Origin: a virus
Lineage: Duplodnaviria; Caudoviricetes
Strand: one strand, 5' to 3'
IMG/VR virus record: IMGVR_UViG_3300035544_000079
Location: 1-64,000 of that record
Length of the DNA: 64,000 nucleotides
Shown: one piece after another, positions 10,871-63,518 of the stretch
Layout of the letters: every line of letters starts with the position of its first letter
Position numbering within the stretch: the stretch's first letter is position 1
Translations under genes and position numbers: made by a program
Notes under the pieces: generated by a model
The model's input: the letters and a program-made list of their open reading frames with translations, nothing else
Told to the model about the DNA's origin: nothing
The model's database searches: none

Positions 10871-13800
10871 CTAGTTTGCACACCCTTCACATTCATATTT
10901 TTTAGCGTCAATAGTTAAAGAGTAATAAACTGCTTTTAACTCTTTTGAAGCAAAACCTTCAAGTATTTCATCAGAAATAGTTTTTATATCAGGTGTTAAA
11001 TCTGGATTTATAGTTAATTCCATACTAATCCCAGTATCTACCCATCTTTGTAATACCCTAGTAAATTTAATAATGTCTTCTGTTTTATATTGAAATTTAG
11101 TCTTATAAAACCAAAACCTTTTATCAATGAACTTAGGTAAAACAGGAATGACCATATCTCCTAAAGTTTGAGTATTATTTTTACTATGTGCCGGTAAATA
11201 TGAAGCAGTAACCCCTTGAACTAATCCTGAACTTGTATTTGGTGCTAATGCAATTAAAAGCATATTTCTAATACCATAATCTTCAATATCTTTTCTAAGT
11301 TGTACCCAATCAAAACCATTCTTACTCATTTTATTTAACTCTTCAGGAGTCTTTCCAAACATTTTAGAGTAATCCGAGTCTTTAAACCCTAAATAAGAAC
11401 CTTTTTCCTTAGCTAAATCAATACTTGCTTGATAGCAATAATAAGTAATTCTTTCTTGTAAACCTTCAGCTAAATCTCTACCCTCTTGACTATCATAATT
11501 TACTTTATTATAAGCCATCCAATCTGCCAATCCTACAACTCCTATTCCAATATTTCTTAAAAGTTTAGAACTATTTTCAGCTTCTAAAGTAGGCATAGTC
11601 CCTAAATCAATACTTGCATCTAACATTCTTACTGCATTTTTACAAGCTCTTTGTAATAGTTTATTATCATTTAAAATATTAGCTACATTGATACTAATTA
11701 AGTTACAACTATGCGTTAATCCATCACTTTCAGTAGTAACCTCTCTATCTCCAATTACTTCTTTCTTCCACTTTGAAGGAGCTTTTGATAAAGAGTATGA
11801 TTCAACACAGTTACCTGCTAAGATTCCATTAAACATACCCATATTCCTCTTAGGCTCAAAGAAACAGTATGTATCTGAAACTCTACCTTCATTTTCTACC
11901 GATAGTACTTTTATGAACTGAGAGGCATCTCTATTTGGTTTTCTAATTGTTGGAGATAATCTATCAGTACTTAAACCTAATGATAATAACTTCTGAACCC
12001 CTCCTTCTGGAATAAGAAGTCTTTTTACTTCTTTTACCTCATACTCAGCATATTCTCCAGAGCCGTCGTTTTTTGGAAGGCTTTGTACTCCTTTATCTCT
12101 ACCATGTGTAACTTTACTATCAATACCTAATGTTTGTAACATTAATCTTAGCTCATATAAAAAATCAATATTAACCTGAGCTACTTGTAAAGATTGAGTA
12201 CCATTATTAGAAGTTAAACAACCATCTGCATCTAAAAATCCAGATAACCAATCTATTCTACTTTTTATAGTATACTCAGCATTAGGTATAAAATATTTAC
12301 TCTTCAATTGCCCCTTTTTCACCCTTAATACTTGTTTTTTATTCTCAGGATAATATATATCTGAAATTAAATCTAAGTTATTAAATCTATTTCTAAGCTT
12401 TGTTTTATCATGATATAAATATATTAAAGGTACTCCAGTACTATAAGTTCCATCACCACTAAAAAATCCATTTTCATATGCAAAAGGTAATACCTTTTTA
12501 CCTTTAATTTCAGGTAAACTATATTTTATAATCTTATCATTAGACTTTAATTCATAAGCTCTTTTCATAACTGCTTTTTTAGGGTTTCTATGACCTTCTT
12601 TTTTTATATAAAATTTATGATAAGGTGTACATTCTATAAACCCTGTACTTGTCATAACTTTTAGTATTTCTTGGGATTGTCCCGTCTTTACTATTTTAAC
12701 ATTTTCTGACCACTCTTCACCATTCCATATAGTTTGATATGTACCTTCAAGACTACCTATTTCCTTATATCCATTTTTTGTTAATATTTTAGTCTCTGGA
12801 GTAACACAAAGATTGGCGTTCTTGGCTGTACCAATAGCTTTCATATAATTACTTAAGTTTAAATTATCTTTATGTGTTATATAAAAATCTCCATACTCAA
12901 CCCATGACCATAAAGCTTGTTTCCACACTTTACTTGCAGAAATCTTCTCATAATGCTTTAACTTACCTTCTTTGATTAAGTTTTCTACTTCTAAATGTGC
13001 TTCATAGAGTTCTTCCTCTATTAACTCTGTAATATCTTTACCTGTCAGCTGTTTATACTCATGTTGGTCAAATAAGTATACATCTTCTTTATTTTGTACT
13101 TTTTCCACAAAATAAGTATCAACAACAATTTGAGGGAAAATATCAAAACATTTATCTCTTAAATCACCATTTAGTTCGGACTTAATTTCACAGAAGTCAA
13201 TAATATCCATATGCCACCAATCTAAAGCTACCGTAATAGCTCCTACTCTAGCCCCTCTCTGATTAACTGAGACTGCTAAATCATTTACAATCTTTAACCA
13301 TTTATTTATCTTATTAGCTTTAGGTACATTTCTTGAATAAGCATTACTTGGTCTAATTTTTCCAAAATACCAACCAATACCTCCACCTTCTTGGGAAATA
13401 TATGCCATATCTGTATAAGATTTCATTAATCCATAAATATTATCAGGTGCTTCCCCAATAAAACAACTTCCTGTATTACCATTTGGTATCCTTAGGTTTC
13501 TTTTAAAGGGAGTTGCTAAAGATAAAATATACTTACTTAACATTTCATAGTACTCTTTTGAAATACTAACTCTATTTTTTTCTTCTTCAATAGTTGCTAA
13601 AATCATACTATTAAACATATCTGATGTGCTTGGATACTCAATAATACCTTTTTTATTTTTTACTAAATACTTTGATTTTAACAAAGCAACTTGAGATAAT
13701 CTTAAATTATAATCTCGTTCTTCTTTAATAAAGTTTGATAAAGTATCTAATTGCTCATCAGTAAAATTTTTTAGAATATCAGACCTATAATACTGATTTC

Positions 13801-14125
13801 TTATTAAATATTTAATATGTTCTTTAAACATAGAAATATCAAATTTAGTTGATTTCCAAATCTCTCTCATTAATTGGTATGCCATAAGCCTACCTGCAAC
13901 AATATCCCAATCAGGATTTTCATCAGATATACTATTTTTAGCAATCATTATTAACTTTTCTTGTATTTCAGAAGATTTAATATTTGAAGTCATATCTAAA
14001 CAAATCATTGATTCAAACTCAAGAGGGTTAATATTTGTACCCTCACAAGCAGGAATAATCTGTTTTCTAATTTTTTCAATATCAAAGTCTTCTTTTCTAC
14101 CATCTACTTTGACAACTTTTTTCAA
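10871..14125 (-). CDS. nrdA: class Ia ribonucleotide reductase alpha subunit with intein
   Basis: N-terminal ATP cone (VVKVDGRKEDFD), GSCF, NL(C)xE active site split by an intein, APNTSSG, C-terminal CEGC. Confidence 0.95.
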   Translation of the reverse strand: MKKVVKVDGRKEDFDIEKIRKQIIPACEGTNINPLEFESMICLDMTSNIKSSEIQEKLIMIAKNSISDENPDWDIVAGRLMAYQLMREIWKSTKFDISMFKEHIKYLIRNQYYRSDILKNFTDEQLDTLSNFIKEERDYNLRLSQVALLKSKYLVKNKKGIIEYPSTSDMFNSMILATIEEEKNRVSISKEYYEMLSKYILSLATPFKRNLRIPNGNTGSCFIGEAPDNIYGLMKSYTDMAYISQEGGGIGWYFGKIRPSNAYSRNVPKANKINKWLKIVNDLAVSVNQRGARVGAITVALDWWHMDIIDFCEIKSELNGDLRDKCFDIFPQIVVDTYFVEKVQNKEDVYLFDQHEYKQLTGKDITELIEEELYEAHLEVENLIKEGKLKHYEKISASKVWKQALWSWVEYGDFYITHKDNLNLSNYMKAIGTAKNANLCVTPETKILTKNGYKEIGSLEGTYQTIWNGEEWSENVKIVKTGQSQEILKVMTSTGFIECTPYHKFYIKKEGHRNPKKAVMKRAYELKSNDKIIKYSLPEIKGKKVLPFAYENGFFSGDGTYSTGVPLIYLYHDKTKLRNRFNNLDLISDIYYPENKKQVLRVKKGQLKSKYFIPNAEYTIKSRIDWLSGFLDADGCLTSNNGTQSLQVAQVNIDFLYELRLMLQTLGIDSKVTHGRDKGVQSLPKNDGSGEYAEYEVKEVKRLLIPEGGVQKLLSLGLSTDRLSPTIRKPNRDASQFIKVLSVENEGRVSDTYCFFEPKRNMGMFNGILAGNCVESYSLSKAPSKWKKEVIGDREVTTESDGLTHSCNLISINVANILNDNKLLQRACKNAVRMLDASIDLGTMPTLEAENSSKLLRNIGIGVVGLADWMAYNKVNYDSQEGRDLAEGLQERITYYCYQASIDLAKEKGSYLGFKDSDYSKMFGKTPEELNKMSKNGFDWVQLRKDIEDYGIRNMLLIALAPNTSSGLVQGVTASYLPAHSKNNTQTLGDMVIPVLPKFIDKRFWFYKTKFQYKTEDIIKFTRVLQRWVDTGISMELTINPDLTPDIKTISDEILEGFASKELKAVYYSLTIDAKKYECEGCAN
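11810..12808 (-). mobile_element. intein with LAGLIDADG homing endonuclease (333 aa)
   Basis: Starts CVTPET after NANL, ends GILAGN before CVES; internal GFFSGDG and GFLDADG motifs. Confidence 0.93.
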
Positions 14126-16602: not shown

Positions 16603-17568
16603 TCAATCCTCACAAAAAGGACTATTTTCTGATAATTTTTCACAAAGTTTATTAAAAAAATCATTCCGAAGATAATTCTTACTATAGCTTTGATTATCTT
16701 TTTTCTTTAGAACCTCTTGAAAATATATGATATCTTCATCTTTATAAATATTATACCCTTGAAAACATAAGTTGATAAAAGCTTCTTCAGTATTAGTTAA
16801 ATTAAATTCCTCCATATAATTATAAAAAAGAGTCTTTTTATCAACTGAATCTAAAATATCATCAGAAAAATCTATATTTTCAATATCATAATAAATACTT
16901 TTTCTGAATCTATTAATTACTTTTATATCAATATCTTGAACTTTACATAAATCAATTAATCCCTCTCCTTGTATTTTATTAAGTATTTGTTCAACCTCAG
17001 TTTCCATTTCCTCTATACTAGAAGGTGTTTTTAAGTGTTTACCATAAAACATTACCTTATAAACTACTTCATCATTATTTGTATAGAAGAATACCTCTTT
17101 ATTTTCATTTTTATCTAAGTCATAAATATTTTTACTTTCAATTTCAAAAGTTAAAGACATTTTTTCAATAATCTCATTAAGTAAATCATATTTATTGGTA
17201 TGTTTTTTAACTTTAATATTACAGAAAACCTTGTACTTAAACTCTTGAGGGTTTTTTACCATAACCTTTTGAATGTTTAAATAATCTCTTGTCTTTATCT
17301 TATCAAACAAGTAGTTATAAAGCTTTTTATTTGCTTCTTGTTTTTCAAGGTTATTTAAAATACTTATTATCTCTTGTTTATGTTTAGAGACAATATCTGA
17401 AATATAATTTTCAGTAGTATCTTTTGGAACATTATACATATGTAATAACTTTTGAGCTAACCTACTACAAAGTCCTTTTGAAACTTTTTCTACTTTATTC
17501 TTCTTTTGGACATATTTTCCAAAAATAATCTCAAATTGAGACTCCGTTAACTTAACTTTTGTATCAAT
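16603..17568 (-). CDS. hypothetical, possibly sigma/HTH-like regulator; probable ATT start
   Basis: Frame stays open 43 codons above the ATG at 17439, up to AAGGAGG-N5-ATT. Confidence 0.5.
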   Translation of the reverse strand: MDTKVKLTESQFEIIFGKYVQKKNKVEKVSKGLCSRLAQKLLHMYNVPKDTTENYISDIVSKHKQEIISILNNLEKQEANKKLYNYLFDKIKTRDYLNIQKVMVKNPQEFKYKVFCNIKVKKHTNKYDLLNEIIEKMSLTFEIESKNIYDLDKNENKEVFFYTNNDEVVYKVMFYGKHLKTPSSIEEMETEVEQILNKIQGEGLIDLCKVQDIDIKVINRFRKSIYYDIENIDFSDDILDSVDKKTLFYNYMEEFNLTNTEEAFINLCFQGYNIYKDEDIIYFQEVLKKKDNQSYSKNYLRNDFFNKLCEKLSENSPFCED

Positions 17569-17600
17569 CTTTTCCTCCTTGTTTTAAGATGAAGTAAGAC

Positions 17601-18610: not shown

Positions 18611-18991
18611 GTCCAAACATGACTAAAAGTCAAGATTTTGAAAGTTTTTATTGCACTTTCTAGTATTGATACCTACATTCTTCTAAATACTTACTTAAAT
18701 CTATTCGTTTGTACAGAAGAATTATAACAAATAACTCCTTAAAGATTACTTAATTTATCAATATTTTTTAAAGAATTTTGAAATTTCTTTTCAATTTCTT
18801 GTTTCTCTTTTTCAAACTCTTTGTAAATCCTATGAATTAACTGATTAACATGACCCACAGGAATCATTGCTCCATTTTCTTCTGTTAATAAATTAAACAT
18901 TTCTATTTCAGCTTCTCTTTCAGTCATTTAGTTATCCTTATCTCTTATTTGTAGTATTATAGCAAATATTTTCTTAAAGATTACTTAATAT

Positions 18992-20482
18992 TTAACCTTT
19001 AATCAATCTTTTGCTAAATTTTACTTTATAACCTAACTCTTGTTCGATTAACAAGCTCAACTCATCTAGGTTTACATCTTCCTTTGTAATAAAAGCGTCA
19101 TAAAGAAGTAAATCATGTGAATAGTTCTTAGTAATTAAATCAAGTATTTGACTTTCTATACCAAAATAGTAGTGCATAATCGCCTTATTTGTATTCCATT
19201 TACTCATATATTTAGCACTTTTATTTCCTCTTGAATTATACAGAATATCTTTTCCATTTTTATCTTTCTTTAGAAACTTATTTTGAATAGATTTCTTTAG
19301 GTAAGAAAATAATTTCTTACACTCATCATAAATGTCATAAGCACTTGGGGTATTTTGTAAAATATATTGAATTTTATCTACACCATAATCATTAGCCCAA
19401 GAGTTAGTATGTACCCCATATATCCCTAAATTAGCTCCAAAGAATATTGCTAAATAAAATTCTTTAGCTTCTTTATAAGAAAAGCCTAAATCAACAATTT
19501 CTTGTCTACACTTTTCCTTATTATCAATATAGTATTTTATCTTAGGAAAATCATGTGTTTTATGATACTTCTCACCTGTTTGATATAAAATAGTAGGAGC
19601 TGAATTTTCAATATCTATTTCATAATACCCTTCAAAAACTTGTTCCCTGATACTTTTTTCTAAGTTTTGTATGCCAATATACTTCTCTCCACCAAAATTA
19701 ACTAATCTACCTCCATCTTTTCTTTCATAGTTTAAAAAATGATTTCCATTATTGTACTTGAAATCTAAATTAAATAGAATTATAAAATCAGTACTATACA
19801 TTAAATCAGTTTCTCCATCTGTAACTCTTTTTATTAAGTTTTTTACATTCTCTTGATTATAAGTAAACTTATGTCGGTAGCTCATTCTTGGTCTATTAGA
19901 CGGAGTTATTGCTGTACCTTGTGCTAACTCTTTAATTTCATAAGAATATTTATTAATATTTTTACTTAATTCAGTTCTTGTCAAATTTTCTCCTTGCATT
20001 AAATCTTTCTTTGTACTGTACTTATTATTATTATTTGGATTTATATATCCAATTTTGGTTTTAAACTTCTCTCTTGTGTAATATCTTGTCCTAGAACTCA
20101 TACCATAACTATATAACTCTATAATAAATTCATACCGTAGTCTATAAGCAAAAGTCTTTTCAGTAAAACTATTACAAACTTTACTATCTTTAATTGATTC
20201 AAAGAAATAGTCAAAGCTTTTCATTTTATTAAACCTTTTAAGATTTCTAGTTACATTACTAAAATAATCATAATATATTGAAACATATCCTTTATATTCT
20301 TTATGTTTAGCAAAGTTACTATTTATAGACTTATTTATTAAATAAAGTAAGTCAAAAGTATGTCTAAAGTCATAGAATTTATCATAATGGTTATTAAGAA
20401 ATTTATTTAAATCAAAGTTAGTGCTAATTAATAAATCTTTTGATTTAACTTTACTATGTTTCTTCTCTTTATTTTCTTTTAT
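18992..20482 (-). CDS. PolA/T7-RNAP-fold polymerase-like protein, paralog 1 (probable ATA start)
   Basis: GGRL, EIDIENS, KEFYLAIFFG, LLLYDAF motifs; frame open to AAGGAGG-N5-ATA at 20482. Confidence 0.55.
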   Translation of the reverse strand: MKENKEKKHSKVKSKDLLISTNFDLNKFLNNHYDKFYDFRHTFDLLYLINKSINSNFAKHKEYKGYVSIYYDYFSNVTRNLKRFNKMKSFDYFFESIKDSKVCNSFTEKTFAYRLRYEFIIELYSYGMSSRTRYYTREKFKTKIGYINPNNNNKYSTKKDLMQGENLTRTELSKNINKYSYEIKELAQGTAITPSNRPRMSYRHKFTYNQENVKNLIKRVTDGETDLMYSTDFIILFNLDFKYNNGNHFLNYERKDGGRLVNFGGEKYIGIQNLEKSIREQVFEGYYEIDIENSAPTILYQTGEKYHKTHDFPKIKYYIDNKEKCRQEIVDLGFSYKEAKEFYLAIFFGANLGIYGVHTNSWANDYGVDKIQYILQNTPSAYDIYDECKKLFSYLKKSIQNKFLKKDKNGKDILYNSRGNKSAKYMSKWNTNKAIMHYYFGIESQILDLITKNYSHDLLLYDAFITKEDVNLDELSLLIEQELGYKVKFSKRLIKG

Positions 20483-20893
20483 AATAACCTCCTTATTTAA
20501 CTTAAAATGTATTATATCTAGTATTTACTTAAAGATTACTTAGGTATATAATTTCTTAGTATTAATATTAATATATTTAAAATAGGGTATAACTAGGTTT
20601 AGTATCTAGCTCTTGTTTCCTAGAGTTTTTCCAAAGAGAACCCTTAGCTGACACAAAAACTATACTAATTTTAAGTATTAAATACACTTGTAACTACCAT
20701 TAATACGAGGTTAAGAGGCAAAAATTTAAATGACATTATTTTAGACTTAACGAAAAGTAAGTGTTTTTATTGTACCTAAATAAAAGACTAGAAATATGTA
20801 AATTTTTAAATAAAACTTAACCTATCAACCAACAAAAATCTCAACAAAATATACCTAAACCTTTAAGAATATTACAAATTTCAAAATTTGTTG

Positions 20894-20938
20894 AAATAAA
20901 AAAGTGTAAAATCGCTAAAATGCCCCATATATAAGTAG
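20894..20938 (+). promoter_or_regulatory. candidate late promoter element (second copy at 54051-54095, minus strand)
   Basis: 39/45-nt match between the two copies; lies upstream of the terminase operon. Confidence 0.5.
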
Positions 20939-21079
20939 AAAGGGTTAAGTTATTTAGCCTTATGTATCTTTATCTGTTTTGTTTCTTTCTCCTTTAAGTA
21001 ATTTTTCATTTGATTCTCCTTTTAAAACTAAATAAAAATACAACTTATAACACCTCCTACGATAGGACAAAGGAATAAA

Positions 21080-50884: not shown

Positions 50885-52048
50885 CTAAGAGGTTAATTCC
50901 TCGAAATCTCCTTTTATTAAATCTTTACTAAACCTTTTAGGAATTTTTTTCTCTTTAATGTATTTAAACATTTCCTCATCAGAGACCTTGTAATTTCCCC
51001 ATATATCCATTCTATTAAACTGTACTAATTTTTCAAAACTAAATAAATATCCATCTCCTCTTATAAAATTTTTTAAAGTTATATTAACTTTTGCTTCTAA
51101 TATCTGTAAATTATCAACATGGTCTAACCCATTTATATATTTACCATTTAGTGGGACTATATGGTCTATGTGAAATTCTGTTGAATATCTTTTATTGAAA
51201 TACTCCCTAACCCTATAAAGCTTTTTCTCATATTTTTTATCTTCTTTACTTCCTCTTAGCCTTTTAGCCATTTTCATAGCTGTAACTCTTCTACCATGTA
51301 TAGGATTATACTTACTTTTATAATTAACTTTTTTAATGTAATTTAAAGTACATTGGTTACTTTTTCTCCTATACTCAGGGTCATTACTACGTCTCTCTCT
51401 ATTTAAAGCATTCATACACGATTTACACTTCCTAAATTTTAGTATAGAAGGTTTGGAGGATTTAAAACCTTGATTCCCAAGAAGTTCTACTATATTTTCA
51501 TCTTGTAAGAACAATTCCCCACACCTTGAACACTTACCTTGTATCAGTTCTTTACCTTTTGTTAAATTTTTTACTTCAAGTATAAATTTATCTTTTGACA
51601 TAACTCCTTTTAATTGCTCTTGTTTATGTAAATACCTTAAAGTCTTTTCATACTCTTCTCTTAGTCTATGGAAATTTTTAGCAAGGATTGTGTAAGGAAC
51701 TCTTTTATCTATAGGTATTTTACCTTTTTTATCACTAAAACATTTATGACATATACCTTTATACTCATTTACCTCATTATAATATATCCTAAACTGTTTG
51801 CCCATATCTTTATTTTTATAGAATTTTGTTTTACAACAAGTACATTTAAAAAACCCTTTAGTCTTTGTATTCATATTTTCTAAACAAGTTGAGCAATATT
51901 CTTGTTTTTTAAATAAAATATTTTCAGGAAAAGGTCTTCTATGTAACTTTTTTACTCTTTTCCACTCATTGTTAGGATTATATCTGTTAAACTTTTTACC
52001 ACAATCCTTACAAGTATATTCTTCCTCTTCTACATATTCATATTTCAT
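50885..52048 (-). mobile_element. HNH endonuclease with CxxC repeats
   Basis: HIDHIVPL...GLDHVDNLQ motif plus multiple CxxC; ATGA-coupled to the upstream polymerase-like gene. Confidence 0.78.
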
Positions 52049-53646
52049 TCTAATAATTCCTCGAAATTACTTTCTAATTTTTCTTTACTAAAAGTTAAAT
52101 CATAACCTAACTCTTTCATAACAATTCTACTTAATTCCTCTAAGTCAATATTATTAGGAGATATAAATTCATCAAATAATAATAAACTAATATCATACCT
52201 TTTACAAACTATATCTAGGATTTGACTTTCTACACCATTATAAATAAAACTTAATACTTTAGGGTTATTCCACTTATCAAGGTTTTTAGAAGTACCTCTT
52301 GTATTTAATACTTTGTACTTTGTTTTCAACTCTTTAGCATTTTCTAAGGCTTTTTGTTTAAAATATTCCCCTAATTCATTATATAAGTAAATAATCTCTT
52401 CAACAATGTTTTGTACTTTAGTATTATTAAGAGCTTTTACTAAATTATCTCCTCCTATACTTTTTACTATAGTTGAATACTGTTCAAGGCTTTCAAGATT
52501 AGTTGATAAATTAGCTCCAAACAATAAAGCTGTAAAATACTGTTTAGCTTGTTTATAAGTAAAACCTTCTTTTACAAGCTCTTGTCTGAATTGTTCTTTA
52601 TCTCTAATATATTCCTCAATATAATAAAAGTTACACTTCTTTGCAATAAACCTCCAATAAAGTTGATAAAATACATTTATAACTGCCGTATTAATATCAT
52701 AAGCATATTGCCCTTCAAACATTACTGCCCTAAATTTACTAGGCAACTGTTGTGGAACAATATTACTATTATAATTAGCCCTTTGGTAAAGTCTCCCTCC
52801 ACCTTTTCTTTGATAAACAAATGTACTTTCTAACCCTTTTAAATCCCTAAAATCAGAAACTACCGAAGCAAAGTGAATACAATTTAACATATTACTATTG
52901 TTACTAACATTCCTTTTTAAAAAAGAAATACAATCATCAATTCTTTCATCATTTAGTTTAGGGTAATGTTGGAAGTCAATATCTCCCTTTAACTCTTTTT
53001 TAGTAAGAACTTGTCTATGTTGTTTTGATGGTAATGTTTTAAATACTTCCATATACTTTTCCATAAAATCTTCTGTTTCTCTGTTAGACAACCCTAATTC
53101 CTCCTTCATTTGTTTTCTAGTTAAATAGATTTCTTTATTCATAATATTATAACATATCTTTTCTTCAAACTTTCTTAAGTAATATGTTATTAGTTTATCT
53201 TCTGTTGAGACAAATGCTAAATAGACATCTTCTAAAATACCTTCTTTTATTCTATACCCTTTAGTATATCCCTTAGTATTATAGGTATTTATTTCATTAT
53301 CTCTTAAGTAAAACCTATACCCTAAATCTTCCTCAAAGATTTCATAAAAGATATGTTTCTTATGTCTTGTTGCATAAGTACCTAATATCTTATCTAATGT
53401 TTTAAAACTTATTGAGTAAAGGTTCTTATCCTCAGAGTGTGAAAGAATAGAACCTTTTTGAATTAAGTTAAAGAGATATATAATAGAGTATGTTTGCTTA
53501 AAGTTTTTTTGAAGGATTTTATACTTACTTATTATCTTATTGTAATTAACCTTAGAGACAAACTCTGTAGGTATCTTATCTTTAGTATTCTTAGTATCAG
53601 TACTAATTGTATTAGTCTTATGTTTATTCTTATCTATACTTTTTAT
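52045..53646 (-). CDS. PolA/T7-RNAP-fold polymerase-like protein, paralog 2 (probable ATA start)
   Basis: GGRLY, YDINTA, KQYFTALLFG, LLLFDEF; frame open 168 codons above ATG 53142 to AAGGAG-N5-ATA. Confidence 0.55.
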   Translation of the reverse strand: MKSIDKNKHKTNTISTDTKNTKDKIPTEFVSKVNYNKIISKYKILQKNFKQTYSIIYLFNLIQKGSILSHSEDKNLYSISFKTLDKILGTYATRHKKHIFYEIFEEDLGYRFYLRDNEINTYNTKGYTKGYRIKEGILEDVYLAFVSTEDKLITYYLRKFEEKICYNIMNKEIYLTRKQMKEELGLSNRETEDFMEKYMEVFKTLPSKQHRQVLTKKELKGDIDFQHYPKLNDERIDDCISFLKRNVSNNSNMLNCIHFASVVSDFRDLKGLESTFVYQRKGGGRLYQRANYNSNIVPQQLPSKFRAVMFEGQYAYDINTAVINVFYQLYWRFIAKKCNFYYIEEYIRDKEQFRQELVKEGFTYKQAKQYFTALLFGANLSTNLESLEQYSTIVKSIGGDNLVKALNNTKVQNIVEEIIYLYNELGEYFKQKALENAKELKTKYKVLNTRGTSKNLDKWNNPKVLSFIYNGVESQILDIVCKRYDISLLLFDEFISPNNIDLEELSRIVMKELGYDLTFSKEKLESNFEELLE

Positions 53647-53825
53647 ACTTACTCCTTTCTATTAATATATTATAATAATCCCTAACAACCTTTCGACAAA
53701 GGAAGCAACACGCCTGTATATATTGTACATTTTAGCATTTTTTTATGTAAAAAGTCCCTTGCCATGGGGTCTAGCACCCGTAATCGTTAAGTATTTAATC
53801 CTCTATATTTTATTTTTAAAATCTT

Positions 53826-54020
53826 TTAACCAACCAAAACTTCTCTGACTTTATCTTTCCCAAAAGCTTGTAATAAAATAATATATGTTTCAAGCATTTT
53901 GCTAATACACTCTTTGTTAGATTTACTTAAAGTAGTTGGGTGTAAGTTAAAAATCTCACAGAACTCTTTATTTGTACTATCTAAATCAAGTAATCTTTTT
54001 TTGAATTCTTTATAAGTCAT
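53826..54020 (-). CDS. small HTH DNA-binding protein
   Basis: NKEFCEIFNLHPTTLSK HTH-like pattern. Confidence 0.55.
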   Translation of the reverse strand: MTYKEFKKRLLDLDSTNKEFCEIFNLHPTTLSKSNKECISKMLETYIILLQAFGKDKVREVLVG

Positions 54021-54140
54021 ATTCCTCCTTTCTTATCTATTAGATATTCTCTATTAATATATGGGGCGTTTTTATGATTTTACACTTTTTTATTTAACTA
54101 AATTTAAAAATTTGTATCCTTATTAAAAGGAATGGCTTAA

Positions 54141-57255: not shown

Positions 57256-58569
57256 TTAATTTTTGTTAAGGTTTTTATCTTGTTCTACTTCTAACATATC
57301 AATCTTGAATAAGTTCCTTGAAACCTCTCCATATTTTTTATGATAAGTAATAGCTTTAACTTCCCCAACATTACCTCTAAATCCTGCTCCATCAGCCCAA
57401 GCATCTCTAGGGGGTAAGTTTTTATGAATCTCAATAGACATCATAGCATCTTCTTTAGATAACATTTTATGATTAGAATGTAAATGACCTATATTCCAAT
57501 ATCTATATTTAGTTTCTGAGAAAATATCAATATTGTCTTCAATCATACATTCTGTTAATTTAGTTTTATTTAAGATGGTATGCCCATGTGAAAAGCCTAA
57601 CAGCACTTTATTAAACTGATAGTACTGTGTTAGCCTATTATCCCCAACAATCTCTACTCTAGGTTCATCTTTAAAATAAGCCCGTAATACTGCTTTTAAG
57701 TAGTAACTAGAGTTCTCACTATGATTACCTGAAACAGATAATACTTTTACATATTTATGCTTTTGTAATGCTTTTTTCACTAACTCAATCATAATACTAA
57801 AAGTTTCTTCAATAATTCTACTATGCCTACTATCCACATCTAGCGAATGACCTGAAACCGTTTGTTTTGTATCATCATTTGCATGAAGTAAATCCCCCAT
57901 TTCGGCTATTAAACAAGTTTCAGAATTAGGAGCAACTGTCATAAGATAATCAAAACTTCCTAAAATCCACTTTCTAGCAATTTTTAAATCATAGTTATAT
58001 CCACTAATTTCTTCTAAAGCTAACATTGCAATATGTAAATCTGTGTAAGGGTACATAGTCAATAAATCTGAATTTTGAGCTAAAGTTAAATCACATTTAA
58101 TAGGTGTGTATTTTTCATTAGCCTTATTTAAAATACTTGCTAATGCTGTTTCTACTCTTTCCATCTCAGCATCTTCTGTTAACTCTCTTTTGACTAAGGA
58201 TTTAATCTCTTTCCTAAGAACATTATTGTTATGTTGTTGAGTCATAACAGATTTTCTAAGCTTTAAGTTTTCTTTTACAACACTCTCTAATTCTTCCTCT
58301 AATTTATGTTCAATATCATAATCTGCTCCAGATTCAATAGCTAAGTCTTTATTTAATTTAAGAACACTTTCAGCTCTTTCTGCTTTAGTAGCATTTTTAA
58401 AACCAATTTGATAAGCAAGGTATCTAAAAGAATTATAATCAACCTTGTAATCCTCACAAAGAGTTCTTAAAGGTCTATCCTTATCTTGATATTCTTGTAA
58501 GAACTTATTAAAATCTTCTTGACTTAAGTCAAACCTATCTTTAAATTCATTTACTAATTTTGTTTTCAT
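57256..58569 (-). CDS. metallophosphoesterase with N-terminal helical/coiled-coil domain
   Basis: TDLH, MGDLLH, SGNH, SHGH, IGHLH motifs. Confidence 0.85.
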   Translation of the reverse strand: MKTKLVNEFKDRFDLSQEDFNKFLQEYQDKDRPLRTLCEDYKVDYNSFRYLAYQIGFKNATKAERAESVLKLNKDLAIESGADYDIEHKLEEELESVVKENLKLRKSVMTQQHNNNVLRKEIKSLVKRELTEDAEMERVETALASILNKANEKYTPIKCDLTLAQNSDLLTMYPYTDLHIAMLALEEISGYNYDLKIARKWILGSFDYLMTVAPNSETCLIAEMGDLLHANDDTKQTVSGHSLDVDSRHSRIIEETFSIMIELVKKALQKHKYVKVLSVSGNHSENSSYYLKAVLRAYFKDEPRVEIVGDNRLTQYYQFNKVLLGFSHGHTILNKTKLTECMIEDNIDIFSETKYRYWNIGHLHSNHKMLSKEDAMMSIEIHKNLPPRDAWADGAGFRGNVGEVKAITYHKKYGEVSRNLFKIDMLEVEQDKNLNKN

Positions 58570-59372: not shown

Positions 59373-61016
59373 TTAAAAAGTATCCTTTGCTTCAAATATT
59401 TGATTAAACCTCCTTAATTTAGTTATCTTTTCAGTATATTCCTCCTCATGCCATGAGAATTTCTTCATTGGTGCTAATAAAGCAAAATGACTTTTCTCAT
59501 TAAAGTTAAAGATAAATACCTCTTGGTTAATAAAGTTAGGAACAATCTCAGGGCTTTCACTTATTCTAGTTGTATGAAGAATAATCTCTTCTTTATTATC
59601 TAAGAAAGTAAACCAACCTCTATTCCTTCTTCTATTAAATTCCGTTAAAACAGCTTTTCTATATTTTACTCCATTAGTAAGTAATAATAAATTCCTAAAC
59701 ATAATAGTTATAGGTAACTTATCTCCTAAACTTATATTAAGTAAAAGATAATTTAACAAATGGTGTAAAGAATGAAATACAAAACCTTGTTGTTTATGAA
59801 GCTTTACTTTTCTTACTCCATATTCATCAGCAAAATGTTGTATATTTTTCTTTAATTGTTTAATATCTTTATTATATGTACTATAACTATATTGGTATTT
59901 CATAGCTTTTTCTGTTAAGAAACTGTTACAAAGCTTTTTCTCTGTACTACAAACAAGAACATCTAAACTATTATCTTGATTAATATAACCTATAAATAAA
60001 AATGTTGTACTTTTCATTCCCCTACGAGCCATTGTTTCAAAATAATCTTTAAACATTCCCTCAATATTTGTTTTAATAATACTTCCGTATCTTAAGAAGT
60101 AACAAATCTTTTTAGGATTTTTATTATAAGAACTTCCTTTATAAAGAAATACTGGAAATCTTGGGTGATATTCTGTATCATCAAGAGGTTTTTCTAATGA
60201 CTTTTTCCACATATATATCTTTCTAGCCTTTCTTCCACGTTCTCTATAATAATCCCTTATTTCTCCATCAGTAGGTAATACAATCTTATCCTTCCACTTA
60301 CTGCCACCAAAACCTTTTAAGTCCATAAATTTATAGAAGTTTCTTTCATTAACTTCTGAACCTTTACCTATAAAATGTCTATGAAGAATAACCTTATCAG
60401 TTAATGCCATATACCTTTGCATTTTAAGTTTTTGATTATCCCAAAGTTCTTTAAGAAGGTGTTTAGGAACTTTAAAAACATTATCTCCATTAATAAACTT
60501 AACTAAAAAGTCCTGAAGGTAATTACTTTCTGAATAAATATACTCCTCAAAATAAGGTCTAAGTTCTTCTTCCTTAACACCATATTCTACCATAAAATCT
60601 AGTTGAGGAAAATTAATGTTCTTTCCTGTTTTAGTATCTTTTTCTAAATCACTTTCTAAGGGTAAAAACTTATCCGTAGGAATTGGACTAAACAAAAGCC
60701 TTTTAACAAAATAACCAATAACAATATTAAGTTCAGCTCTGTTATCATTATTCCTATACAGAATCTTTCTTAAATAAGCTTGTTTATCTTCAGCACTTGG
60801 AATCTTATCTAACTCGTGAATAAACTCCATAAAAATCCTAATAATAGTATCCTTAATAAAAAATATATTAAAAGTTGTTTTTAATTTACCTTTCTTAGGA
60901 ACTGTTATAGCTTTCTTTGTAGACATAAGATTTGGAACATACACTTCTTTAGTCTTTTCTTCTTGTTCTACTTTAGAGAACGATTGTTCTACATTTTGTT
61001 CTAACTCTTCTGACAA
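59373..61016 (-). CDS. large hypothetical protein
   Basis: 547-aa ORF, TTG start directly after the upstream stop codon. Confidence 0.6.
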   Translation of the reverse strand: MSEELEQNVEQSFSKVEQEEKTKEVYVPNLMSTKKAITVPKKGKLKTTFNIFFIKDTIIRIFMEFIHELDKIPSAEDKQAYLRKILYRNNDNRAELNIVIGYFVKRLLFSPIPTDKFLPLESDLEKDTKTGKNINFPQLDFMVEYGVKEEELRPYFEEYIYSESNYLQDFLVKFINGDNVFKVPKHLLKELWDNQKLKMQRYMALTDKVILHRHFIGKGSEVNERNFYKFMDLKGFGGSKWKDKIVLPTDGEIRDYYRERGRKARKIYMWKKSLEKPLDDTEYHPRFPVFLYKGSSYNKNPKKICYFLRYGSIIKTNIEGMFKDYFETMARRGMKSTTFLFIGYINQDNSLDVLVCSTEKKLCNSFLTEKAMKYQYSYSTYNKDIKQLKKNIQHFADEYGVRKVKLHKQQGFVFHSLHHLLNYLLLNISLGDKLPITIMFRNLLLLTNGVKYRKAVLTEFNRRRNRGWFTFLDNKEEIILHTTRISESPEIVPNFINQEVFIFNFNEKSHFALLAPMKKFSWHEEEYTEKITKLRRFNQIFEAKDTF

Positions 61017-61622: not shown

Positions 61623-63320
61623 TTATTCCTCCCAAGATAGTGTAGATTGATTATCTTCTCTATAAACATTTAGAGTGTAATCACTTTCGATAGTTTCACC
61701 GTGATGGACGGTGATTATACTTTTATTAGGAAACTCTTTAGTAATATATCTTAAAAGCTTTCCTACTTCTTTCTTCCCACTCTCATCAATATTACTTAAA
61801 ACCTCGTCCAAGAATAATAAGTTAATATCAACATTTGTAAGTGTTTTAATACTTAAGTTCAAAGCTAAACATAAAAGAATATCTACCCTTCTTTGTGTTC
61901 CAGAACTTAAATCAATGTACCTTTGTATTAAACCTTGTTCTTTATAAACAAGTTCAAAAGTATCTTTAGAGGTATTCTCTACCCAAATATTAATTTCATT
62001 ACCTAAAGCTTTTGAACTAATCTTTGAAAGAGTTCCATTAAAAAGTTCTATAAATAATTTGATTCTTTCTTTTACAAAGCCCTTAGCTCCAGTACAAGCT
62101 TTAATCAATTCATAAACATAAACTTTATCTCTAAATTCTGTTAAAGCAATTTCATTAGAAACTATTTCTTCATTAGCCTTAGCTAAGTCTTTTCTCAGCT
62201 TATTCCTAAGAGTTACTTTATCTGAACTTTCTTCATTAGCTTTTATCTCTTTGAGTCTTTTAATCTCATTCTCTAAAAGGATTTCTTCTTTAGTAATCTT
62301 TTCAAACTTTGTTCTTAATCCTTGTAAGATTTTATACTTCCCTAAGTTATTTGTTTTTAAATCTTTCCTTTGAGTTGCTAGTTCAGTAATCTGTTCTTGA
62401 ATATTTTCAAACTCACCTTTCAAAGAATCAATATTCTTAATCTCTTGTTTGCAGGTAGGACATTTACTAAGATTAAGTATCTTTGAACTCTCTGTTTGTT
62501 GTTTCTTAAGAAAGTCTATTGAACTTGTTAATTCATTTACTTTACTTTCTTGCCCTTTTATTTCAGACTCAAATTCTTGTAACTCTTTTTTGGCTTTACT
62601 TTTATTATAAACAATTTCTTCAAGAGTTTCCTCTTTGGTTGTTATATCAAGAATATCTACTGAGTTATGTTTAATCATATCTAGGTGTTCTTTAAGATTA
62701 TTAACATTACTTTGTAAAATACTTTGTTCCTTGACTTTCATATCAAGCTCTAACTTAAGAGACTTTAATTCAATATCAGCTTTTTTATTAATATCTGTTA
62801 TGAACTCTAAACTAAGTAACTCTTTAATAAAATTACTTTGAGCTGTATCCTCAGAGGTACTAAATAAGCTTAGTTTCTGAGGACTTAAAAAGAACAATTT
62901 ACTAAAAGTATTAAAACTTAAACCTAATTCTTTTTCAAGTTCATTTTGTTTAGTTACTTTATTAGAGTATCCACTAGGAATATCATTAATATAATATTCA
63001 AAAAAGTTCTTAGAATAATCTCTTTCTATAATAAGTTCATCAATAGAATCTTCTCGGATAAGGTCTATATAAATCTTTCCATAGAATTTCTTGTTAGTAT
63101 GTTTATTATAAATTTCTTTTTGAGCTTTTCCTATTAAATTCTTTCCGTAAATACATTGACAAACTAAAGAAGGTAATGAGCTTTTGCCACTTCCATTAGA
63201 ATCAAACTTTCCATCAGTTTGACCATTAAGAGCTACTAACCCTTCTCTATTTTCAAAGGAAACTTCTGCATCATTATACAAAAGAAATCCTTGTGTTTCT
63301 ATCTTTTTAATTTTTACCAT
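61623..63320 (-). CDS. SbcC/Rad50-like ATPase (gp46-like)
   Basis: NGSGKSS Walker A, CPTC zinc hook, LSSG signature, LFLDE Walker B; ATG 63320 fits better than 63380. Confidence 0.9.
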   Translation of the reverse strand: MVKIKKIETQGFLLYNDAEVSFENREGLVALNGQTDGKFDSNGSGKSSLPSLVCQCIYGKNLIGKAQKEIYNKHTNKKFYGKIYIDLIREDSIDELIIERDYSKNFFEYYINDIPSGYSNKVTKQNELEKELGLSFNTFSKLFFLSPQKLSLFSTSEDTAQSNFIKELLSLEFITDINKKADIELKSLKLELDMKVKEQSILQSNVNNLKEHLDMIKHNSVDILDITTKEETLEEIVYNKSKAKKELQEFESEIKGQESKVNELTSSIDFLKKQQTESSKILNLSKCPTCKQEIKNIDSLKGEFENIQEQITELATQRKDLKTNNLGKYKILQGLRTKFEKITKEEILLENEIKRLKEIKANEESSDKVTLRNKLRKDLAKANEEIVSNEIALTEFRDKVYVYELIKACTGAKGFVKERIKLFIELFNGTLSKISSKALGNEINIWVENTSKDTFELVYKEQGLIQRYIDLSSGTQRRVDILLCLALNLSIKTLTNVDINLLFLDEVLSNIDESGKKEVGKLLRYITKEFPNKSIITVHHGETIESDYTLNVYREDNQSTLSWEE

Positions 63321-63518
63321 AACCGTAATACTCCTTTGAAAAGTTTGGTCTATGGGGTAAATCATTATCAAAAATACCAAATCTTCTTTTATGTTTACTA
63401 TGAGGTTTTGGTAGTCTCATTCCTAAATCTTCTACAAGATTACATTCTAATTCTATCTCTCCACTTTTTGCTTTTAAAATTTTATCTCTCTTTTCTTCGT
63501 CCGTCATTCCTCCTCCTT

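Follow-up and report, generated by a model that had tools for sequence, protein, structure and literature searches.

Two ATA-initiated polymerase paralogs of the TV-Pol class in a tailed-phage genome record

The transposon-virus polymerase (TV-Pol) family was described by Iyer, Abhiman and Aravind in 2008 (PMC2579912) as a minimal family A polymerase core built from a two-helix thumb, an Arg-bearing hairpin, a palm of RNA recognition motif-like fold with two Asp residues, and helix-turn-helix (HTH) fingers with a conserved Asp and an RxxxK motif. In that description TV-Pols are never linked to nucleases and occur as stand-alone proteins, fused to a D5-like helicase (Sputnik V13) or with an extra N-terminal domain; the genes linked to them encode D5-like helicases or else integrases, resolvases or transposases, and phage Ma-LMM01 is named as a carrier with an integrated TV-Pol element. 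From the helicase linkage the same source predicts that they are primase-polymerases (prim-pols) which replace the archaeo-eukaryotic primase (AEP) prim-pols ahead of D5 helicases, so that they would be at once the minimal polymerase of family A and a primase of a third kind. DNA primase activity has been demonstrated for one member, the CcPol-MP primase of the staphylococcal cassette chromosome SCCmec, in which CcPol needs its small OB-fold partner MP and alone only extends primers (PMC7581432). Here we describe two genes placed in this class, paralog A and paralog B, encoded on the minus strand of a 64,000-nucleotide stretch of tailed-phage DNA. This stretch, referred to below as the window, is positions 1–64,000 of the 72,135-bp IMG/VR record IMGVR_UViG_3300035544_000079 (27.5% GC, ~79% complete); where 72 kb is mentioned, the whole record is meant. 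Of the sequencing runs that contain this DNA, the two best are oil-field metagenomes, from which the record may come; no RNA run was listed as containing it. The two coding sequences and their parts are as follows.

18992–20482, minus strand: paralog A, full coding sequence, 496 aa plus stop, ATA start at 20482–20480, by translation; A-type lineage
52045–53646, minus strand: paralog B, full coding sequence, 533 aa plus stop, ATA start at 53646–53644, by translation; B-type lineage
18992–19876, minus strand: predicted polymerase core of paralog A, residues 203–496, with thumb helices, the R259 hairpin, palm D290/D462 and fingers K340 and F348–G349 (from the Klenow superposition at Z 15.0, hhalign against PolA and column counts)
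19877–20482, minus strand: N-terminal domain of paralog A, residues 1–202, alpha/beta and weakly winged-helix-like
52972–53646, minus strand: N-terminal domain of paralog B, residues 1–225, homologous to that of A by alignment (tblastn residues 19–525)

An earlier note, made from the letters of the window alone, had proposed the two genes as paralogs with a common set of motifs. Both frames were found where it had placed them and translate to 496 and 533 aa plus stop, and every motif it quoted was recovered from both translations. GGRL and ESQILD are common to the two proteins; the motif A stretch reads IDIENS in A and YDINTA in B, the motif-B-like helix KEAKEFYLAIFFGA in A and KQAKQYFTALLFGA in B, the motif C region LLLYDAF in A and LLLFDEF in B, and the C-terminal stretch ELGYKVKFSK in A and ELGYDLTFSK in B. 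Alignment of the proteins by BLASTP gave 37% identity over 249 aa at E 9e-39, far beyond chance, and tblastn extended the match beyond the BLASTP span, with B residues 19–525 aligned to A. The sequence comparison thus identifies 18992–20482 and 52045–53646 as true paralogs.

The upper coordinates of both genes are ATA codons rather than ATG, GTG or TTG. Calling of open reading frames (ORFs) from the latter three codons yields only 18992–20224 (410 aa) and 52045–53142 (365 aa), which shortens A by 86 residues and B by 168. The two ATA codons are each preceded at 5 nt by a strong Shine–Dalgarno sequence.

20488–20494, minus strand: Shine–Dalgarno sequence of paralog A, AAGGAGG, 5 nt before ATA, read from the sequence
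53652–53658, minus strand: Shine–Dalgarno sequence of paralog B, AAAGGAG, 5 nt before ATA, read from the sequence

At the ~0.084 stops per codon expected from the 27.5% GC composition, the 86 and 168 additional codons would be free of stops by chance with probabilities of ~5e-4 and ~4e-7, respectively. Homologues of 491–524 aa have Met at the aligned start position and cover 93–97% of the long form of paralog B; homologues also cover the N-terminus of paralog A, and the N-terminal extension of A was modelled by AlphaFold with a predicted local distance difference test (pLDDT) of 72–93. The Shine–Dalgarno spacing, the stop-free length, the coverage by homologues and the confident folding together show that the long, ATA-initiated frames are genuine coding sequence. 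Relatives in metagenomic contigs start with ATG, with TTG or with an ATA placed 4 nt after a Shine–Dalgarno sequence and three codons before the called ATG. The TTG start is that of an A-type gene (contig L007, position 459) and the ATA arrangement that of a B-type gene (contig L005, 2620–2650). The genes of this family may characteristically have weak starts.

Relatives were collected by an exhaustive phmmer search, which returned 310 representatives with the cut-off at E<=1e-3 and 63 when it was set at E<=1e-10, so that the family comprises at least 310 clusters at 50% identity. An alignment of 109 sequences from this search was used for modelling. The AlphaFold2 model of paralog A had a pLDDT of 89.9 and a predicted template modelling score (pTM) of 0.87. 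Compared with the PDB by Foldseek, it gave 145 matches at E<=1e-3, of which the top ones were all family A DNA polymerases, in the order Klenow (4.8e-6), Bst, apicoplast Pol, T7 DNA polymerase (DNAP) and Pol theta. Superposition by VIA-align placed model residues 202–496 on Klenow residues 537–923 with a Z of 15.0 and a root-mean-square deviation of 3.7 Å over 261 residues. The other DNA polymerases scored Z 13.9 (Pol theta), 13.8 (apicoplast Pol), 13.0 (Pol nu) and 11.9 (T7 DNAP), and RNA polymerases (RNAPs) scored 12.4 (yeast mitochondrial RNAP), 11.4 (T7 RNAP) and 7.9 (N4 RNAPII). By these model-based scores the core of A appears closer to the DNA polymerases than to the RNA polymerases, though not decisively. 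In the model the two thumb helices (210–221 and 230–244) directly precede a hairpin of strands 249–254 and 260–263 that carries the invariant R259 (R285 in B). The right-hand polymerase fold had been guessed from motifs in the earlier note, which also took both proteins to be stand-alone enzymes without an exonuclease domain; the model and the Foldseek and VIA searches reveal a family A core, and a Pfam search matched no family, exonuclease or RNA polymerase domain in either paralog, in agreement with both points. We regard the assignment of fold and family as highly secure.

The active site was located by profile comparison with the polymerase I of the same phage, which is encoded beyond the window.

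70622–72088 (genome coordinates), minus strand: genuine PolA, 488 aa, PF00476 at E 3.4e-40 (70766–71824), polymerase domain only, outside the window

This gene lies close to the contig end, and its closest relatives are 680–830 aa long with 3'-5' exonuclease domains. When PolA was given to hhalign as a single sequence, the family profile matched it at only 0.4%, and a PolA profile was therefore built from 29 homologues of the phage protein. Against this profile the 109-member family profile aligned at 91.6% (E 8.1e-7, 210 columns), so that R259 corresponds to the Arg of GRLSS and D290 to the Asp of motif A, with K340 and D462 opposite the motif B Lys and the motif C HD, respectively. The register as a whole sets GRL(Y) against GRLSS, LQN..k..R..f against PNLQNIP....IR..f, YDI against DYSQ, aK...ffGA against aK..nFg..YG, and HDGF against HDE. 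Residues R259, D290, K340, E443 and D462 are conserved in 109 of 109 sequences, R326 in 108, and Q272 and G349 in 105 each. Paralog B carries every one of these conserved residues (including R285, D317, R354, K368, E473 and D492), and the catalytic Asp pair D290/D462 of A is D317/D492 in B. The two catalytic aspartates predicted earlier are thereby placed at residues that are invariant in the family and aligned with Pol I motifs A and C.

Several positions depart from Pol I. Five residues past the motif A Asp, where we take the Glu of Klenow, Taq and T7 DNAP to be the steric gate that confers deoxynucleoside triphosphate (dNTP) selectivity, the family has His (44), Ala (41) or Val (14) and never Glu; paralog A has Ala and paralog B has Val. 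In the fingers, the residue four before the Lys is I, E, V, Y or K and not Arg, and the conserved Arg lies 14 residues upstream of K340 in an (N/D)321-K322-xxx-R326 motif. In place of the Glu that follows the motif C Asp of Pol I stands Gly or Ala. Judged by the invariant residues both paralogs are probably catalytically competent; the enzymes look active, and their sugar selectivity does not appear to be readable by analogy with Pol I. Ordinary searches do not detect the relationship: PF00476 run over the whole phage at E<=10 matched only 70766–71824 and neither paralog, Pfam searches of 100 family members returned no polymerase family and only scattered single-member matches, and neither single-sequence nor family-profile searches of Pfam, PHROGs and PDB sequences produced a meaningful match. 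The kinship to Pol I is visible only by profile–profile comparison and by structure.

Searched against the genome of Microcystis phage Ma-LMM01, the family profile gave a single match, ORF MAP_030, a 506-aa protein annotated as hypothetical and encoded beside two transposase genes. The match (HMMER 6e-9; hhalign 96.1%, E 2.9e-9; core-only HMM 36.9 bits) was stronger than that to the real PolA, and the motifs aligned in register (GLRVY, LQG..R, YDV..C, VK....NGA and QHDG). From its context and size we infer that MAP_030 is the TV-Pol of Ma-LMM01 named in the 2008 description. The best structural neighbours among viruses were uncharacterized proteins from uncultured tailed phages (4e-12), the 'helicase/primase/polymerase' proteins of virophages (Qinghai Lake virophage, Zamilon), giant-virus proteins and Dickeya phage proteins. 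An ESM Atlas search with homologue P0009 as the query returned unannotated phage and bacterial clusters and, structurally, also DUF5906/D5_N proteins of Preplasmiviricota; a distant family member, P0105 (842 aa), has a C-terminal DUF5906 NTPase (5e-10). No match to either protein was found by tblastn in 50,697 phage records, a search for longer (fused) relatives found none, and pattern scans of viral and genome contigs revealed no relatives. Because of the core architecture and the profile match to the founding carrier Ma-LMM01, the two genes are filed under TV-Pol. They are new members of a class that has been known since 2008 and is barely characterized, and so do not represent an unknown kind of enzyme.

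The N-terminal domain of A, folded alone, reached a pLDDT of 68.6. Its best structural matches, in the full model as in this one, were weak (Z 4.5–5.0) and nearly all to winged-helix proteins, among them the ORC2 winged helix, TFIIE, MarR and plasmid RepA, and Foldseek returned nothing significant for it. The domain is presumably winged-helix-like and probably binds DNA, a model-based assignment that we treat as a lead rather than a result. Its putative homology to Ma-LMM01 scored only 3.9 bits.

In a maximum-likelihood tree of 27 relatives, A grouped with P0008–P0012 and P0014 (support 100/98) and B with P0004–P0007 and P0017 (support 87/92). Contigs from one further metagenome also contain A-type (L007) and B-type (L005, L006) genes. 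For each paralog, orthologues from other phages are closer than the second paralog is; the split is therefore old and both types have long been maintained. Two maintained lineages fit a division of labor without showing it.

Viewed as a whole, the findings suggest that A and B act as a primase-polymerase or replication initiator, a role to which we assign an even chance. This reading is drawn from the linkage of TV-Pols to D5 helicases, the CcPol-MP precedent, the presence in this phage of a PolA but no recognized primase, and the extra, conserved N-terminal domain. The N-terminal domain would bind phage DNA, and the polymerase core would either begin a short chain de novo or lengthen a 3' end, which PolA (70622–72088) would then take over; the A-type and B-type lineages would serve different sites or phases of replication, and the weakness of the ATA starts would hold both proteins to the low amounts that are usual for initiators. 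No primase or helicase was recognizable in the 72 kb of the record, and no Walker A motif was present in the unassigned ORFs of the replication region. Several points weigh against the proposal. In our alignment the strict TV-Pol RxxxK motif appears to be absent, as it does from MAP_030 of Ma-LMM01. No helicase is adjacent or fused to either gene, although such linkage is the main contextual argument for TV-Pol primases; the downstream neighbors are a 62-aa ORF (18739–18927) after A and an HNH-like ORF (50885–52048) after B. No OB-fold MP-like partner was identified, and by itself CcPol is unable to prime. The fold assignment of the N-terminal domain is weak (Z<=5), and, the record being ~79% complete, a conventional primase or helicase may lie in the missing fifth.

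A first alternative is that the paralogs are accessory, primer-dependent DNA polymerases without proofreading that do not prime, and that would act in gap filling, strand displacement, bypass of lesions or modified bases, or recombination-dependent replication alongside SbcCD-like and FEN nucleases. We consider this possible but unlikely. A complete polymerase active site without an exonuclease would suit such an enzyme, as would the behavior of CcPol, which without its partner only extends primers, and the lack of an SSB-like partner or helicase gene adjoining either paralog. The phage is also rich in nuclease and recombination genes, encoding SbcC/SbcD-like nucleases (61623–63380 and 57256–58569, both on the minus strand), endonuclease VII and a FEN-type enzyme; methyltransferases are encoded as well.

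65228–66172 (genome coordinates), minus strand: FEN-type 5'-3' exonuclease, a separate gene 4.5 kb from PolA

However, the phage already has PolA, the fusion of relatives to D5/DUF5906 helicases argues for a role at the start of replication, and the N-terminal domain, being conserved in both the A and the B type, suggests that sites are recognized and not that the enzymes serve general repair. A 547-aa ORF that lies between the SbcD-like and SbcC-like genes (59373–61016, minus strand) lacks a Walker A motif and matches nothing in Pfam or PHROGs.

A second alternative, that the paralogs are miniature single-subunit RNA polymerases of the T7 or N4 RNAPII kind, depends in part on the non-coding DNA near the two genes. 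A leftward block of genes opens with paralog A, which a 597-bp gap (20483–21079) separates from the rightward terminase and virion operon; paralog B lies just beyond the other end of the virion module, and upstream of it come non-coding DNA at 53647–53825 and then a 64-aa gene. Two copies of a 45-bp element occur in this setting, inverted and 33 kb apart, with a 20-mer core, AAATAAAAAAGTGTAAAATC, that is present exactly twice in the window against 0.18 occurrences expected.

20894–20938, plus strand: 45-bp element, first copy, facing the terminase operon and away from paralog A
54051–54095, minus strand: 45-bp element, second copy, facing the 64-aa gene and paralog B
53826–54020, minus strand: 64-aa gene upstream of B, from the ORF list, an MxYxEFKKxLxDL... 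protein with no Pfam or other family match

The element may be a phage-specific promoter or regulatory site. The intergenic regions gave no evidence of structured RNA and contained no iteron-like repeats, the window yielded no match to Rfam and no tRNA, the leader RNAs were not more stable than shuffled sequences (z +0.53 for A and -0.51 for B), and sigma-70-like sites and terminators were not above shuffles. Of the earlier suggestion that each gene lies next to an intergenic control region, it holds that each adjoins non-coding DNA, and the link to control is weak, with the 45-bp element facing away from A. Since it faces the terminase operon and the operon of B, the element is not a common feature of both paralogs.

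In the RNA polymerase alternative the N-terminal domain would read a promoter, for example the 45-bp element, with different promoters for the two paralogs. The fold is common to the T7 and mitochondrial RNAPs (Z 11.4 and 12.4), the steric-gate Glu of Pol I is missing, no other RNAP gene was seen in the 72 kb, the 45-bp element stands in the leaders of the terminase operon and of the operon of B, and Iyer et al., in their account of the family, propose an ancestral TV-Pol with RNA-polymerizing (primase) activity. Set against these, structural likeness is higher to the DNA polymerases (Z 13–15), the paralogs have 496–533 aa where the matched RNAP chains have ~830–1100, neither has an RNA polymerase Pfam domain, and the 45-bp element, with only two copies in 64 kb, one pointing away from A, is too scarce for a promoter set. 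The column that we take to be equivalent to Tyr639 of T7 RNAP is Phe in both paralogs and is divided between Phe (55) and Tyr (49) across the family. We judge an RNA polymerase improbable; the evidence leans to a primase-polymerase over it.

A third explanation makes the genes selfish cargo of mobile cassettes, of TV-Pol plus homing endonuclease, that replicate or spread the cassette and not the phage. TV-Pols are typically transposon-borne and the Ma-LMM01 copy stands beside transposases, and paralog B is translationally coupled to an HNH-like ORF.

50885–52048, minus strand: 387-aa HNH-like ORF, rich in Cys, its ATG overlapping the stop of B (ATGA); phrog_26577 at 1e-7, weak PF01844 at E 0.081, several CxxC pairs

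To judge from its sequence this ORF is probably a homing-type endonuclease. Contig L005 adds a further sign of insertion, a different 278-aa ORF that sits between the 65-aa homologue of the 64-aa gene and the B-type gene. Cargo of this kind is nevertheless very improbable: no integrase, resolvase or transposase was seen adjoining either paralog, orthologues of both lineages occur, with conserved neighbors, in related phage-like contigs, and the essential replication genes of phages are a common target of homing endonucleases, which would support the opposite reading. That the paralogs are catalytically dead DNA-binding proteins that keep the polymerase fold is scarcely credible. Several Pol I residues are indeed not conserved, namely the Arg at position -4 from the motif B Lys, the steric-gate Glu and the Glu that follows the Asp of motif C; but all 109 members, which otherwise have only ~20% identity, keep both metal-binding Asp residues, the Arg of the hairpin, the Lys of the fingers and one more Glu.

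Other features of the surrounding genome were recorded. The leftward block that begins with paralog A runs into nucleotide-metabolism genes, with a thymidylate synthase-like gene, a ClpP-like protease and a class I ribonucleotide reductase. The large subunit of the reductase (10871–14125, minus strand, 1084 aa) carries a LAGLIDADG_3 domain within the barrel (residues 626–682), likely an intein. An ORF at 16603–17583 (minus strand), which consists of a 278-aa ATG-initiated frame (16603–17439) and 48 stop-free codons upstream that lack ATG, GTG and TTG, may have another non-canonical start. The 64-aa gene upstream of B has a homologue of 65 aa upstream of a B-type gene in L005 (1395–1592, plus strand), and thus accompanies this lineage in two unrelated contigs; it is possibly a small regulator, its putative HTH character being suggested by the appearance of the sequence.

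The primase-polymerase reading has a bolder form, in which the paralogs would be self-contained initiator-primases: a sequence-specific winged-helix-like N-terminal domain would be joined to a minimal Pol I-fold core able to begin chains de novo with neither a fused helicase nor an SSB partner, the core, lacking the steric-gate Glu, would possibly use nucleoside triphosphates (NTPs), and each of the two ancient lineages would have a start site or replication phase of its own. This form we hold to be doubtful. If true, it would provide the first primase of a tailed phage to be built on the fold of family A, and a present-day model of the ancestor that has been proposed for Pol I and the T7-type RNAPs. 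The only TV-Pol assayed is the atypical, Pol I-like CcPol-MP. The family described here has at least 310 clusters without Pfam or PHROGs annotation, and both copies in this phage are truncated by gene callers; a practical gain is correct annotation and a candidate new Pfam family. With two old lineages, a PolA and no recognized primase, the phage is a convenient system in which to ask whether a bare Pol I-fold core can prime, and what sets the use of NTPs or dNTPs.

Among described enzymes, the T7-like RNAPs (3e2e, 6ymv and 6dt7) have the palm and fingers and the catalytic Asp pair in common with the paralogs (Z 11.4, 12.4 and 7.9, respectively), but the paralogs are about half the size of T7 RNAP, their structural scores with RNAPs are below those with DNA polymerases, and no RNAP Pfam domain, PF00940 included, is present. 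Pol I (PF00476; Klenow 1d9d/1kfd) has the same thumb–palm–fingers fold and the same motif order (GRL...Q..P...R..F, motif A Asp, motif B Lys...(F/Y)G, motif C HD). The paralogs differ from it in an aligned identity of ~12%, in the lack of a PF00476 match and of 3'-5' and 5'-3' exonucleases, in a different N-terminal domain, and in not conserving the steric-gate Glu, the motif B Arg or the Glu after the motif C Asp. The CcPol-MP and PolA-SSB systems (Bebel et al. 2020, PMC7581432; Rice 2022, bioRxiv 10.1101/2022.12.02.518924) likewise have an exonuclease-less family A domain on a mobile element. CcPol, however, is described as so close to the housekeeping Pol I that it makes poor search bait, and as keeping two residues that discriminate against ribonucleotides, whereas the paralogs are invisible to PF00476 and lack the steric-gate Glu; CcPol is encoded in an operon with MP and a helicase, and neither partner is evident at the paralogs. 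The closest agreement is with the TV-Pols, in the thumb, the Arg hairpin, the two-Asp palm and the Lys-bearing fingers, the absence of a nuclease domain from the protein itself, the size of 400–600 aa and the stand-alone occurrence in a virus that keeps its own DNA polymerase; an HDG-like motif C and a YDI/YDV-xxC-like motif A are likewise common to both. The paralogs differ from the described TV-Pols in having no fused or adjoining D5-like helicase, integrase, resolvase or transposase, in an Arg that lies 14 residues before the Lys, apparently in place of a strict RxxxK, in a predicted N-terminal domain that is alpha/beta and winged-helix-like where the described one is 'all-helical', and in being present as two anciently diverged copies in one phage, both of them initiated at ATA.

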